Source of the DNA: Planctomycetota bacterium
GTDB lineage: Bacteria; Planctomycetota; JAJSAM01; JAJVHW01
Direction: 5' to 3'
Assembly: GCA_965248445.1 (NCBI GenBank)
Contig: CBDFJG010000004.1
Location: 1,312,001-1,376,000 of the forward strand
DNA: 64,000 nucleotides
Part shown: positions 18,001-24,000 of the stretch, piece by piece
Numbering within the stretch: position 1 is the stretch's first letter
Layout of the letters: each line of letters opens with the position of its first letter
Position numbers: made by a program

Positions 18001-21000
18001 TCACGTCGTGCAGCGGCCGCGTCGTGGTCACCGGTGTCGGGAAGTCCGGGCTGATCGGACAGAAGATCTCGGCGACCATGGCGAGCACCGGCACGCCGTC
18101 TCTGTTCCTGCACTCGGGTGAGGCGGTACACGGGGACATGGGACGCGTGCTCGAACAGGACATCGTCCTCGCGCTGTCCTACAGCGGCACGACCGACGAG
18201 GTGATGCGGCTGGTCCCCATCATCAAGAAGATCGGCGCCCCCCTCATCGCGATCACGAGCACGGCCGACAGCGCTCTCGGCTCAGTCGCCGACACGTGCC
18301 TGCCCCTGGGGCGCATCGAGGAGGCCTGCCCCATCGGACTCGCTCCGACGTCCAGCACGACCGCGATGCTCGCGCTCGGCGATGCGCTGGCCATGACGGT
18401 CGCCGAACGCAAGCACTTCGACCGCGAGAGCTTCGCTCTGTTCCACCGCGGCGGAGCGATCGGCCGCGGACTCGTCACCGTCGGCGAAGTGATGCGCCCG
18501 CTCGACAGGCTGGCCTGCGTGCGCCCCGGGACGCCCGTGAGCGAAGCCCTCCAGGCCCAGGCGGCGGCGGCGTGGCCCCGCAGCGGCGCCGTGCTGGTGA
18601 CCGACGACCAGGGCCTCCTCCTCGGGATCTTCGCCGGCGGCGACCTGCGGCGCGGACTCTTGGGGGATCCCGGCCTCCTCACTCGTCCCATCGAGCAGGT
18701 CATGACCGGCGAGCCCAAAGTGGCCCGCGCGACCGACCTGCTGGCGGATGCCTACAACCGGGTGAAGGAGCACAAGATCGACGAGCTGCCGGTCGTGGAC
18801 GGCACGGGCCACGCCGTGGGTGTGCTCGACGTTCAGGACGTCGTCGAGTGGGGCGTCGCGCTCTGAGGGCCCGCGCCCCTCTTCCGGCATTCCCTCTTCC
18901 GGTCGGTGATCGACCGGACAATCGACCCGACCCAGCGCCCATCGCGCGCCTCTTTGCCAACCGTGAGCGACCCCGACCTCACCGCCGAACACGCGCCGAC
19001 GACGCCAACCTGGCGCCGCGTCTCGCGTGATCCGAGCAGGCACGAGCAGATGTCATGAAGTTCACGACGTTGCGGCGCGTGACGATCTTCGGCGTCGTGT
19101 TCGGCGGGCTGATGGCCGCCGTCGCGTGGCAGGCGGGAGGCATCCGCGGCAACAAGCCGCACAGGACGGTCTCGGCGGCGCGACCCGACGAGCCCACTGG
19201 CATCGTCACGATCGGCGGCGACGCGGGCATCGGTCGCGGCCGTGGCGTACGCGTCTTCCGGGACGGCGTCGCTCCGGTGGACGGCGCGCCGGTCATGTTC
19301 CGCAAGTGGGAAGCGTGGTGGGAGAAGCAGACCCCCCGCGAAGGCGACGGCCCGGACCGGCACGTCTTGCTCTGCGAGGACTTCCACGTCCTGTTCTTCC
19401 ACGCCGTCCCGGACGAACACGACCCGCGTCCGCGCGCGGTGGAGGGCCCGAACACCACGCGCATCGACGCAACACGCGCCGAGATGGACTCCGGCTCCGC
19501 GCAGAGGGAACTCCGCGCCGACCTGATCGAGAACGTCGTGATCACGCACCATGGCGTCGAGAGCGATCTCGTCCTCAAGACGCGGCGGCTCTTCGTGGAG
19601 GAAACCGCCGAGGGCGGTCGTGAGCGCCAGATTGCGCGCACCGACGAGCCCGTCACGATCACGGGGCCCAGTCTCGAGCTGACCGGCACGGGCCTCGACT
19701 TCGAGCTCGACGCGCGCCCGGTCGTGACGCTCAGACGCGATGTGCGCGCGGAGTTCGTGACGCAGCGCGCGCTCGTCGGTGCGCCGACGACGACGCTCGC
19801 GGGCGAGACCGCAACGGCCGTCATCACGTGCTCGGGGGCGGCGAGCATCGAGGCACTCGAGGGCGCGCGGCGGCGCAACGTGCGGCGGCCCTGGAAGATG
19901 ACGTTCGAGGGCGACGTCGTCGTGAAGCAGGCGGGCGGGACACTCTCGGCGGATCGGCTGGAGATCCAGTTCCTGACCGGTGGTAACCGCGAGCGGAGCG
20001 AGGACGACCTCATGTTCGTGCTGGCCGACGGCAATGTCGTCGCCGGAACGGAGAAGAGCGCGGACGGCAACGCGTGGACCGTGCACACCGCGCGCATGCG
20101 CACGACGCGCGGCGTGAAGTCGGAGTACATCTCGACCTTCGACGGCGGCACGACCATGACCTTCAACGGCGCGCTCGGCGAGACGGACGGAGCCGGGCGA
20201 ATCGAGGTGCGGTCGAGCGGCCCCGCGACTCTGAAGACGGACCGGGCGCCGCCGCGCCCGGAGTCACCAACACGAACTCGCGTGCACTTCACAAAGGACG
20301 CCGTGTTCCGGCAGTGGGACGCGGCGGAGGTCATGACGGGAGAGGTGACTGCGCCCGAGATCATCCTGCTCGGTACGCGCGTGATGGACGCGGACGGGAC
20401 CGTGCGCCCAGAGCCCGACTCACTCACGGCCATGGGCAACGAGACGACGCCGGTGAAGATCTTCCATCGGGGCGTGCGCGTGTCGAGCCGCGTCGCCACC
20501 TGGCGCACGATCGGTGACAAGGGCATGGAGCGACTGCTGCTGAACGGCACGCCGCGAGCGGAGTTCGCGGATGAGTCCGGCTGGAACCCACTCGGGGGCA
20601 GCAAGGCGCTGCGGCCGGCCGTCCTCGAGTTGACCGCCGGAGAAGCGATCGAACTGATGACGATTCGGAAGACGCCGAACGGGGACCCGGCCGCGACTGA
20701 GCGGCCTACGGCCCACGCCGAGGGCGGCGTCACCTTGCGCCGCGTCATGGACGGCCAGGAGACGTACCGGCTCGACTCGAGGAACCTGGACGTCGGCTTC
20801 GACACCGCGCGCCGGCCGGCACACCTACGCGCGTACGGCGACGTGCACCTCGTCGGACGCGGCGAAGCGCCGGGCTCCCCGCGCGTTGAGTTGCTTGGCG
20901 AGCGCCTCCAGGCCGTCCGCGAGGGCGAGGGCGAACCGGGTCCGCAAGGGCTGTGGACTCAGACCCGGCTCGGCGTGTACGGGGACGTCGGGAATCCGGC

Positions 21001-24000
21001 GCGCGCGCTGTTCGACGCGCCAACGGACAAGGACGGGCCACGGCGAGCGCATCGCGTCCGCGCGCAGGAGATCACCTACGAACAGAACGGCTCCACGCTC
21101 ATCGCGCGGCGGGACGCGGTGGCGGAGATCAACCGCCGCATGGACGGCGGGGCACCCTCGGGTGTCGCCGACGACGCGACGGTTCGTGGCAACGAACTGC
21201 GCGCCGTGCTCTCGCCCAAGCGCAACCCCACCGACACGGCGGAACTGTTGCGCGTCGTTGCAAGCGGCGCCGCCGTGGTCACAACAAAGACGTTCACGGT
21301 CACCGGCGACTCCGTCACATACGACCACCGAGCCGGCACCGCAACCGTGGAGGGTCGGCCGGCACGCGCCGTCATGCGTGACCGATCCGGACGCACAACG
21401 CGCTCCGGGACCCCTCACGAGTCCACGGTCGTCTCGGAGCGGATCGTGGTCGAATTCGACGGACGGCTCATCGGAGGCAAGGGCGCCGAGCCGCGGCGGA
21501 TCCGCTGCAGCGGCGGACGCATCGTGCTCTACACGACACCCGATGATCGTGCGACGGCGATCGTCAAGCGCGTCTCCGTGGTCGCAGCGGGCGCGATCAA
21601 CGTGCAGCGGGGCTTCGCCAGCGCCGAATGGGACGTCGCGGTGACGTGGGAATCCGAGATGCGTGGCGGCAGCTGGCAACGCGACGCGCGGCTCTCGTGC
21701 GAACGCGTCAACCTGACCATCGACCCACAGGCCGACGCGAACTTCACGGGCCGCATTCGGCACGCGACGGCGATCGGCACCGAGGATGCGCCGGTACGGG
21801 TGGAGAGCGGACGCGTGACCGCGTTCACGGATCGCGTCGAGGCCGAGGGTGCGTGGCTGAAGATGTCGTCGCCGTGGGGCCGCCGCACCCGAATCATCGA
21901 GCGCTCCTCGAACGGGGAGACGTCGGAATTCGAGTTCGACAGCGGCTGGTGGAACTACTTCACCAACGAGTGGCACAACTTCAAACGCGTGGAGTACCGT
22001 TAGGGCGGAGCGACCGACTCCGGGCCTGCGCTGTTCGTGCCCGAGAGCGAGCGGTCGCTGAGCAGGGCGCTGACGCCAGGGAGCCGACCACGTCATGGAT
22101 CTGGGACTGGGCGAGATCATGCTGGTCTGCTTCGTGGCGCTGATGGTCTACGGGGGGCGCCTGCCCAAGGTCGCGCTCGCAGTCGGCCGCAGCCTCGGCG
22201 AACTCAAGCGAGGACTCCGCGAGACGACCGACATGGTGCGTCGAGAGGTCGAGGACGTCGATCCGCGCCCCGTCGTCCGCCGCGCCATGCGAGAGATCGA
22301 GAAGACGACGGACGAGGTGAAGCAGGCCGTCGACCTGGACAGTGCAGATCCGGACAGCGCAGACCCGGACAGCGCAGATCCGGACCGGCCACGACCCGGC
22401 GGCGAGTCACTCGAGGAGGTCGGGTCGGGCTGACCCGGTGTTGGTCCTCGGGGCTACTCCTCGGCGAGGTTGCCATCCGCTTCGTCGAACATCGACTCCC
22501 AGCCGCCACCGGCGGCGGGCGGAGCCGCAGCCGGCGCGACGGGGTCGGTGACCGCGGCCGGCAGATCCAGTGATCGCTTCGTCCGGACCCTTGCGGCCAC
22601 GCGGCCGAGCGCGCCCGCGGACGCGACGTCAACGCCGAATCCGGTCGGCGCAGGTCCGAGCGCGAGAACGGCCGCCGGGAGTACCCCGAGAACCCCGACG
22701 CCAACCCGGGCGGGGGCGGAGACGGGCGCGGCAACCTCGGGCACAGCGTCCGATGCACTGCCCGGCGCGGCCTCCGGCGAAGCGGGCTCGGCAGCATCCG
22801 TGGCGGCCGGCGCTCCGTCTGCGGCATCCTTCTCGGCCTTCTTCCGCGCCGCCTTGGTGGCGTCGACCTTCGCGGTGCGGGCGCGCCTCTTCTTGGCGTC
22901 CTTCTCCCACCCGTCGAGCACATCCATGATCGGGCGACGGGCGCCGACGTAGAGGAAGGGCGCCTTGCCCGACTTTTCCTCGATCTCCGCCAGCACGTGC
23001 TCTCGCGGCATCTCGACCACAGCGAATGTCGCGCTGTCCCCGAACACGTCGATCGGGAGGATCTGCATGTCGCGGCAGAACTCGACACTCAGCAGATCGA
23101 CGGCCGCCCGCGGGATGTCGTACGATACGACGTCGATGAAGGGCAGCCCGTAGTGCGTCGCCACGAGCCTCGCGAGGTCCCACTCGTCGATGGCTTGACG
23201 GTCGAAGAGGATCTCCGAGAGAGGCCTCCCGGTGGTCTGCTGCTCGGCTAGGACCTCCTCGGCCGTGGCGCGGTCCATCAGCCCTTCGTCGAGCAGCACG
23301 TCGTCGAGACGGGTGCGCGCGAGCTTCGTGAGCAGTTTGCGGTACATCTGACATGGCCTCCCGCAGGCCCCGCGTCGTCTTGGCGTGGCCCTCGCGGACT
23401 CATCGGCAGCAGGCCAGGCTCCGGTTGAGGTCCCGGGCGCCGCTTCAGCCCGGAGGCGTTGCCCGAGCCTGTACCGCCTCGCCGAGTTGGAAGCGCGAAC
23501 TCAGATGTCGAGCTCGGCGACGTCCAGCGCGTGCGCCTCGATGAACTGCCTGCGGGGCTCCACCTGCTCCCCCATCAGCACCGTGAAGATGTGGTCCGCC
23601 GCGACGGCATCCTCCATCCGCACGCGGAGGAGCGCTCGCTTGTCGCGCCGCAGGGTCGTGTCCCGCAACTGCTCGGCGTTCATCTCCCCGAGACCCTTGT
23701 AGCGCTGCAGGTCGATCGAAGCCTCGCCGATCGAGTACAGACGCTTGACGACGCCGCGCAGGTCGGAGCACGCATGCAGGTCCTTCTTGGTCTCGACGCC
23801 AAAGCGCGGGTTCCCGTCGTCGCGACGGAAGTCCTCCGCCGCAAAACCGAGCGCATCGAGTCGGGTCAGAAGGGCTGCCAGGTTGCCGCGCCAACGGAAC
23901 TCCGCGACGTAGACGTCCGGCGGTTCGAGGGCCGGCGTGTCCTCTCCCTCATGGAACCAGCGCACGTCGCGGTCCAACTGCGCGGCGGTGTCTGCCCCGT

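Follow-up and report, generated by a model that had tools for sequence, protein, structure and literature searches.

In the lipopolysaccharide export machine of the E. coli type, LptB2FG-C-A-DE, the bridge proteins LptC and LptA are small: LptC consists of a single domain of about 190 amino acids, and LptA is free and soluble, has one module and carries its own signal peptide. Single-chain lipid bridges of the AsmA-like/TamB-YhdP type are anchored in the inner membrane by their N-terminus and cross the periplasm as one long beta groove. The number of LptA copies in the E. coli bridge is unsettled, estimates ranging from one to five, and it is open whether the length of the bridge follows or sets the width of the periplasm (accessible parts of PMC10863985 and bioRxiv 10.1101/2023.04.28.538765). 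When LptC and LptA of E. coli were fused by engineering, the product bound LptB2FG and, in nanodiscs in vitro, handed LPS on to LptD (accessible part of PMC12065857). A natural LptC-LptA fusion was not found in the literature searched, the coverage of which did not extend to most subscription journals and supplements.

The window, the whole stretch of 64,000 nucleotides from a member of the Planctomycetota that was analyzed, encodes at 19055..22003 on the + strand a protein of 982 amino acids which the ORF, Pfam, a predicted model, a module profile and GC3 together characterize as an LptC-(LptA)5 single-chain protein. The ORF begins with ATG and is free of internal stops, and GC3 is coding-like throughout (0.83-0.91 in 7/7 blocks). 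As the genome-wide survey's note had it, the gene stands after kdsD and before tatA. The former (17859..18866, +; Pfam SIS E 6e-23, CBS E 4e-14) encodes an arabinose-5-phosphate isomerase with SIS and two CBS domains and is the direct upstream neighbor; the latter, a tatA/B-family gene (22095..22433, +; PF02416 E 1e-7), takes the place of lptA-lptB downstream, lptB being on another contig. The note had extended the kdsD-tatA setting to the family, which is correct for tatA (downstream in 7/7 relatives), but kdsC also intervenes in 6/7; in this genome kdsC was not found. A search for a sigma-70-type promoter at the gene gave no match, and the one terminator-like match at the locus is at chance level.

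The protein starts with basic residues followed by a hydrophobic helix (residues 9-25; 19079..19129, +; DSSP helix 11-25 at low pLDDT), which is predicted to be an uncleaved inner-membrane anchor and has a counterpart of similar character in the full-length homologues. There follows an LptC-type jellyroll (residues ~62-237; 19238..19765, +), where the LptC match reported earlier for residues 131-232 was found again (Pfam PF06835, 27.9 bits vs. a cut-off of 21); the NCBIfam LptC equivalog TIGR04409 reaches 32.3 bits, under its cut-off of 38. The LptA match reported for residues 281-340 is present in NCBIfam (TIGR03002, E 9e-5, 22.4 bits) but falls under the equivalog cut-off of 71.7, and Pfam LptA/LptD_N (PF03968) covers residues 281-309 with 20.7 bits vs. 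a cut-off of 20.4.

With a module profile from which this class had been excluded, six modules were detected at 10.5-35.5 bits, the maximum in 100 shuffles being 7.3. Those of the LptA type are module 1 (residues 256-339; 19820..20071, +; 29.8 bits), module 2 (383-508; 20201..20578, +; 13.7 bits, or 17.7 bits with the A4-type profile), module 3 (552-681; 20708..21097, +; 17.6 bits), module 4 (672-780; 21068..21394, +; 35.5 bits) and the last module, which has the weakest support and is presumed to be the LptD-docking end (839-932; 21569..21850, +; 10.5 bits, or 12.7 bits with A4). The A4-type profile has LptA, LptH and LptD as its top matches in the PDB, with a best E of 2e-17. The earlier estimate of about six LptA lengths is corrected to one LptC and about five LptA modules. 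In the strands polar and apolar residues alternate, with a lag-1 covariance of −1.82 vs. −0.59 ± 0.24 (0/1000 shuffles).

In an AlphaFold model from 22 sequences (pLDDT 79.8, pTM 0.66) helix 11-25 is followed by strands from residue 62 to residue 977, so that the long continuous beta chain of the survey's model was obtained anew, and so was the likeness of its N-terminal part to LptC, the best VIA match being 6mit_C (Z 13.6, rmsd 3.4, 142 aligned; model residues 57-254). The C-terminal half, which the survey's comparison had not covered, gave a model of its own (pLDDT 86.7, pTM 0.84) that folds like LptD-N (Z 13.8, rmsd 3.0 over 167 residues; 568-801), LptH (Z 13.6; 568-746) and LptA (Z 12.9), the LptH and LptA values referring to residues 568-773. 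The last module is weak here too: with the last 180 residues alone VIA matched no LptA structure, and the best Lpt row was the LptF jellyroll with Z 5.6. MORN-type sheets reach Z 10-11 for these 180 residues and Z 10-12 across the models; a MORN-repeat reading was rejected, the values being high but under the Lpt rows and a Pfam MORN match being absent. Foldseek searches of the PDB with both models were uninformative (long beta-rich chains, TM ≤ 0.16), and a prediction of the complex between residues 787-982 and the LptD-like protein of this genome (score 0.08, mark 0.32) is evidence neither way.

Full-length orthologues had been claimed for all seven family members. Full-length matches are indeed present in 7/7, but only 6/7 are intact, the gene of one genome (G007) being interrupted at about residue 215 by a TAA in frame. 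As a family feature the design was described too narrowly: it is present in the family, but its range is wider. There were 29 homologue matches, of which 17 have 971-1016 amino acids at 29-39% identity; one homologue is named LptA by its database source. Word-index protein searches returned only 4 and 2 matches, and a scan of the genome collection with the 982-aa protein returned none. In Planctomycetota 52 of 70 LptC matches lie in frames of at least 600 codons. Judged by such matches, the long single-chain design appears to prevail among those LptC genes of the phylum that can be detected, and some lineages keep a free LptA. The number of added LptA modules per chain ranges from 1 to about 7, and a form of ~660 amino acids occurs in anammox bacteria, which can be enriched. 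Of the 58 genomes matched in family f7, at least 28 and probably 42 carry the chain and an LptD-like region as a single ORF; a phmmer search with this fusion against PDB sequences gave no match.

The fold of the C-terminal half, the repeats found with an independent profile and the failure to find a free LptA support the reading of the protein as a fused LptC-LptA. For the survey's further claim, that the periplasmic LPS bridge is a single fused polypeptide, this covers the fusion, and the lone span from LptB2FG to LptD is what we infer from it: probably the chain represents the whole soluble span of the Lpt machine, one LPS conduit from LptB2FG to LptD.

The chain could instead be an extended LptC that needs more subunits where the periplasm is wide, either a free LptA that escaped detection or further copies of the chain arranged head to tail. 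Planctomycetes can have a much enlarged periplasm (accessible part of PMC5394234), free LptA genes exist in three families of the phylum (f74, f49 and f16), and in one genome (G120) an LptA-type ORF of 209 codons directly follows the 848-aa chain. In the genome under study all matches to PF03968 and PF06835 fall inside the 982-aa gene, in agreement with the survey's note, and PF13100 (OstA_2) has none. The absence of a separate LptA, also stated there, was borne out by a profile search, in which the next ORF of this genome had E 0.14 and 15/15 spiked free planctomycete LptAs were recovered at E ≤ 5e-10, and by the 17 class genomes (this one and 16 relatives), in none of which a free LptA was seen; the spikes were picked by Pfam, however, and the profile made without this class does not detect the N-terminal domain of the LptD-like protein encoded here, so that a strongly diverged free LptA might escape such a search, and the genome is 92.1% complete. 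The 68 module matches in the 17 genomes comprise 60 in the long gene, 7 N-domains of LptD-like proteins, which the profile thus reached, and 1 unrelated ORF. Of four weak candidates given by a first module profile in the own genome, all discarded, two are shadow frames, one is the LptD-like gene and one an unrelated protein rich in beta structure, and beside lptB, lptFG or lptD no module or lptA candidate was seen by eye or profile. Free LptA moreover accompanies short LptC: separate short PF03968 genes occur in 7/16 genomes with a short LptC frame vs. 1/52 with a long one and, by family, in 4/12 vs. 1/29, tallies that are not independent because the genomes are kin. Since head-to-tail stacking is difficult for a chain anchored in the membrane and family f7 joins the chain directly to an LptD-like region, we consider a need for additional subunits unlikely.

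It is also unlikely that the N-terminus serves as a signal peptide and is cleaved off, which would make the chain a soluble periplasmic rod that docks to LptF by its jellyroll alone. An Ala-x-Ala-like site does end the hydrophobic stretch of this protein, and by eye the LptC chains of several other families resemble signal-peptide forms, but the stretch is ~17 residues long and its last residue is aromatic or bulky in most homologues, Ala-x-Ala not being conserved.

It is very unlikely that the same fold serves mainly another purpose, as a carrier of other lipids or lipoproteins or as a tether holding the membranes at a fixed distance. An anchor with a long beta groove resembles the AsmA/TamB-type bridges, and one Lpt part is reportedly a mover of lipoproteins according to a preprint on Borrelia LptD. 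Lpt parts moving lipoproteins are also reported in the accessible part of PMC12065857, and the lack of a detected kdsC points the same way. Against this, the gene is the genome's only one of the LptC/LptA family and, as the survey's note said, the partners are encoded elsewhere: LptB, LptF, LptG and LptE above cut-off and an LptD-like gene below the Pfam cut-off, together with LpxC, LpxB and WaaA above cut-off; kdsD or kdsC lies upstream of the chain gene at 36/40 loci of the phylum; and AsmA, AsmA_2 and DUF490 have no Pfam match in the chain, only LptC and LptD_N being found at E ≤ 1. A TamAB entry appears in the VIA list at Z 4.8.

An assembly or annotation artefact that fuses several genes has next to no probability, for although such errors are known in these genomes (the stop in G007, and an LptC-TatA fusion in G285 that proved to be frameshift read-through), it is refuted by the conservation of length across the divergent homologues, and kdsD, gene and tatA lie on single public contigs with 0 differences in 3/4 runs (one sample, possibly the assembly's own) and GC3 is coding along the whole gene.

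In the proposed one-piece bridge the N-terminal helix would join LptB2FG in the inner membrane, as the helix of LptC does, and the LptC domain would receive LPS from LptF. The five LptA-type modules, seen in profile and model, would extend the same beta-jellyroll, which would thus form a lipid groove of ~20 nm without protein-protein joints. The last module may join its edge to that of the jellyroll at the N-terminus of LptD, for which the gene fusions of chain and LptD-like region in f7 give indirect support. ATP hydrolysis by LptB, established for the family, would push LPS along the chain as in E. coli, and the gene, rather than oligomerization of LptA, would set the length of the bridge.

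More tentatively, and with rather less than even confidence, we propose that most Planctomycetota use a gene-encoded ruler instead of a self-assembling LptA bridge, the number of modules (1 to about 7, five here), each adding about 3.5-4 nm, fixing the distance between inner and outer membrane at the sites of LPS export. Free LptA would have been lost as the chain lengthened, up to one family with a single polypeptide from anchor to LptD barrel, and the chains would also be spacers or tethers that mark the places at which a periplasm of varying, often enlarged width is kept narrow. One-piece bridges found in nature, whose number of modules depends on the lineage, are a countable series, in which chain length can be compared with the membrane spacing in tomograms; whole modules can be removed from them or added, and as one stable polypeptide they lend themselves to a structure of the full LPS conduit. 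Tools for gene deletion exist in the planctomycete Planctopirus limnophila (PMC5394234). The one-piece chains would also account for the poor annotation of LptA and LptC in planctomycetes.

The system of the E. coli type (6mit, 6mjp, 2r19, 4uu4, 5iv9) resembles the one described here in the position of the gene after kdsD(-kdsC), in the order of N-terminal helix, LptC jellyroll and LptA-type modules, and in the partners LptB, F, G and E with an LptD-like protein. It differs in having two small proteins where there is one chain of 982 amino acids here, an LptC of one domain instead of six modules, and an LptA that is free, whereas the about five joined LptA modules here are internal to a chain predicted to be anchored; no free LptA was found here, lptB is unlinked and the length of the bridge would be fixed by the gene. 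The engineered E. coli fusion, as far as the accessible part of PMC12065857 describes it, likewise combines LptC with LptA in a single chain; it is artificial and was used in vitro, whereas the natural planctomycete chain, conserved in its class, contains about five modules. With the AsmA-like/TamB-YhdP bridges the protein shares, by prediction, the anchor and one long beta groove crossing the periplasm, but its repeat is the LptA module and its pathway that of Lpt with an ABC motor. Closest are the other LptC-(LptA)n chains of Planctomycetota, including the anammox form and the LptC-A-D fusion of f7, which are database proteins undescribed in the papers found: they have the same locus and the same architecture and differ in their number of modules, in the LptD-like region added in f7 and in the free LptA that the short-chain lineages keep.

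A single chain of 982 aa combines an LptC domain with repeated LptA-type modules and is encoded at a conserved locus, in a genome that has the other Lpt and lipid A genes and no detectable free LptA. The genome-wide survey's note had proposed a fused LptC-LptA periplasmic bridge; this make-up has held, and the chain is probably a one-piece LPS conduit standing in for LptC and LptA, a function predicted from architecture and locus.

The chain matches Pfam LptC at residues 131-232 (27.9 bits, cut-off 21) and LptA/LptD_N at residues 281-309 (20.7 bits, cut-off 20.4), and it matches both the LptC and the LptA family of NCBIfam, each below its own cut-off. 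When long LptC chains from other classes were used to train a module HMM, it found six modules, at residues 151-256 (10.7 bits), 256-339 (29.8 bits), 383-508 (13.7 bits), 552-681 (17.6 bits), 672-780 (35.5 bits) and 852-930 (10.5 bits), versus 7.3 bits for the best of 100 shuffles. Run against PDB sequences, a 100-row module profile gave LptA, LptH and LptD as the first 21 of 28 matches.

The whole-chain model, built from 22 sequences (pLDDT 79.8, pTM 0.66), shows a helix (residues 11-25), a low-confidence linker up to 58 and 57 strand elements between 62 and 977. In structural comparison (VIA) its top matches were LptC (Z 13.6, rmsd 3.4, 142 aligned; Z 13.2), followed by LptD, LptH and LptA at Z 10.5-11.5, with MORN sheets at similar Z. 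Since these matches cover mostly residues 56-534, residues 548-982 were folded alone (pLDDT 86.7, pTM 0.84). The top three were then the LptD N-domain (Z 13.8, rmsd 3.0, 167 aligned), LptH (Z 13.6, rmsd 2.2, 128 aligned) and LptA (Z 12.9, rmsd 3.3, 130 aligned), all within residues 568-801, with MORN1 next (Z 11.1), whereas for the final 180 residues an LptF jellyroll came up at only Z 5.6. The LptC/LptA-like fold, seen by the survey mainly at residues 56-453, extends into the C-terminal half. Polar/apolar alternation along the strands exceeds that in all 1000 shuffles, as expected of a one-sided groove or a sandwich core. Strand rungs are spaced 4.8 Å apart; with the 29 long and 28 short strands taken as ~43 rungs, or from six modules at 35-40 Å, we infer a chain length of ~20-24 nm.

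No free LptA was found in the genome by Pfam, whose PF03968 has matches in just 76 of 301 phylum genomes. Among 20 fetched loci with separate PF03968 matches, 15 are short stand-alone LptA genes, from families f74, f49 and f16. When these 15 were added to the 57,870 six-frame ORFs of the source genome, the module HMM recovered all of them at E <= 5e-10, and the best own ORF besides the long gene reached E 0.14; profiles leaving out one family at a time recovered 9/9, 5/5 and 1/1, with zero own ORFs below E 0.2. The 17 genomes of the class, two of which (family f3) had contributed to the profile, gave 68 module matches: 60 in the long gene, seven in LptD-like N-domains and one in an unrelated ORF. 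The survey's failure to find a separate LptA is thereby placed on a calibrated footing, within the limits that the spikes were Pfam-selected, that the assembly is 92.1% complete and that the HMM misses the genome's own LptD N-domain. That more subunits are needed beside the chain is improbable. The free single-module LptAs of f74, f49 and f16 (L158-L172, L177) have signal-peptide-like N-termini, several f74 genomes carry two paralogues, and LptC in these lineages has just one added module.

LptB, LptF, LptG, LptE, LpxC, LpxB and WaaA are encoded elsewhere in the genome, all above cut-offs, and an LptD-like ORF with homologues in 17/17 class genomes lies below its cut-off (E 0.003), in line with the divergent LptD noted before. 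In the proposed conduit, the N-terminal segment would stay uncleaved as a membrane anchor, the chain would associate with LptB2FG, its modules would form one continuous groove for LPS, and its end would dock on LptD. Cleavage of the N-terminus, as improbable as a need for additional subunits, would be compatible with the rest of the conduit reading. Another cargo, or a role as a tether, is less likely still, given the complement of Lpt and lipid A genes.

That the chain is an artefact can practically be dismissed: the ORF (19055-22003, plus strand) is uninterrupted, GC3 is 0.83-0.91 all along it, and in three of four public runs from a single sample, perhaps the source, contigs span the stretch unbroken and with zero differences. 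Searching 1.84 billion representatives gave 29 proteins: besides the chain itself, 17 are 971-1016 aa long and share 29-39% identity, and 11 are shorter. In the atlas, the clusters closest to the chain consist of hypothetical proteins from Planctomycetota, 964-1029 aa long. Full-length orthologues had been claimed for all seven other family genomes; a full-length match exists in 7/7, but that of G007 is interrupted by an in-frame TAA near residue 215, inside the LptC domain (L004 about 1959-1961), which may be an error or a real nonsense allele.

As reported by the survey, the gene occupies the slot between kdsD (17859-18866, 188 bases upstream) and a tatA-family gene starting 91 bases after it. 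The conserved block reads scpA / kdsD-(kdsC)-long lptC-tatA, then an MshEN-domain gene and gyrB on the opposite strand, adjoined by dciA, dnaN and dnaA (the last two recognised by eye); it is seen at 15000-30000 of the window and at loci L002-L008, L058, L073 and L089-L093. Directly upstream of kdsD lies a Sigma54-type regulator (16947-17849) that has an AAA lid and a Fis HTH, its ATPase match being only partial (profile 2-61 of 168). kdsC is missing from its slot (18867-19054) in the source genome and likewise in G004, and a TIGR01670 search of the 92% complete source genome found no KdsC. A frameshift in the long gene of G285 (L080:3434-7663) creates a false LptC-TatA fusion ORF. Outside the window, ~30 ORFs of 491 codons that score identically are spread over all four source contigs, probably a high-copy insertion sequence.

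A profile of 22 homologues matches 15 of the 17 class genomes; in the remaining two, kdsD-kdsC is followed by a long module gene. Pfam LptC matches 70 of 301 phylum genomes, in open frames of <300 codons (2), 300-599 (16) or at least 600 (52); PF03968 matches the LptC frame itself in 36 genomes (21/40 families). Because stop-to-stop frames overstate length, 40 of the 70 loci, spread over 33 families, were fetched: two encode conventional LptCs (174 and 189 aa), one is contig-cut and 37 encode chains of at least 304 aa. Both Pfam families occur in 30 of 37 scanned chains, kdsD or kdsC lies upstream in 36/40, and the added modules number 1 to about 7. Records named Ca. Kuenenia, Brocadia and Jettenia include relatives of a 664-aa three-module form; together with the atlas clusters, this identifies the phylum as Planctomycetota. 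In LptC chains from several families (L046, L049-L053, L055, L063, L075, L077) the N-terminus resembles, by eye, a cleavable signal peptide, not an anchor. A separate PF03968 ORF of <500 codons accompanies 7/16 short LptC frames versus 1/52 long ones (by family 4/12 versus 1/29), counted without two contig-cut genomes and among genomes that are kin, not independent; the exception, G120, has it directly after the long chain. The module profile matches 245/301 genomes. Family f15 gives no match in any of its 17 genomes, be it to LptC, to LptA or to the module profile, and the bridge there is very divergent or possibly absent.

In family f7 the chain runs on into an LptD-like region, giving one ORF of about 1,690 aa after kdsD-kdsC (L060:3833-8890 in G085; relatives L109-L137) in the order anchor, LptC, jellyroll modules, LptD-like region, the last so named from phmmer (E 5e-6), atlas neighbours and DUF3769. 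Of the 61 genomes searched, 58 matched: in 28 the match to the fusion runs end to end, 14 more are probably fused (best match in a frame of at least 1,600 codons), 10 are split (LptD-only frame <1,000) and 6 are unclear. In the four split genomes looked at, the LptD-like gene comes directly after the module gene. The fusion indirectly supports direct contact of the last module with LptD.

The chain is real and conserved, a variant of a known system whose pathway and fold are already known, with a predicted function, and it changes, for a large part of a phylum, the standard set of components of an essential pathway. By size and by the equivalog tests of either family it is neither a plain LptC nor a plain LptA, and is therefore a fused variant. 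An engineered fusion of LptC and LptA works in vitro (PMC12065857). We found no natural one in the literature, subscription journals and supplements lying outside the scope; the accessible text of PMC8871954, PMC9972910, PMC8567305 and PMC10542722 mentions none, and in that of a genomic survey of planctomycete outer-membrane markers LptD is the only bridge part (PMC3422733). Like the system of E. coli, the chain is read as working as LptC plus a stack of LptA. LptA copy number there is unsettled: one copy is described as spanning about 15 nm (PMC10863985), and in models, 1-5 copies place the membranes 185-325 Å apart (bioRxiv 10.1101/2023.04.28.538765). On this scale the estimated length of the chain equals the five-copy model and exceeds the E. 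coli estimates. Such a width is compatible with, though not implied by, the enlarged and variable periplasm of planctomycetes (PMC5394234); bridge length versus periplasm width becomes testable.
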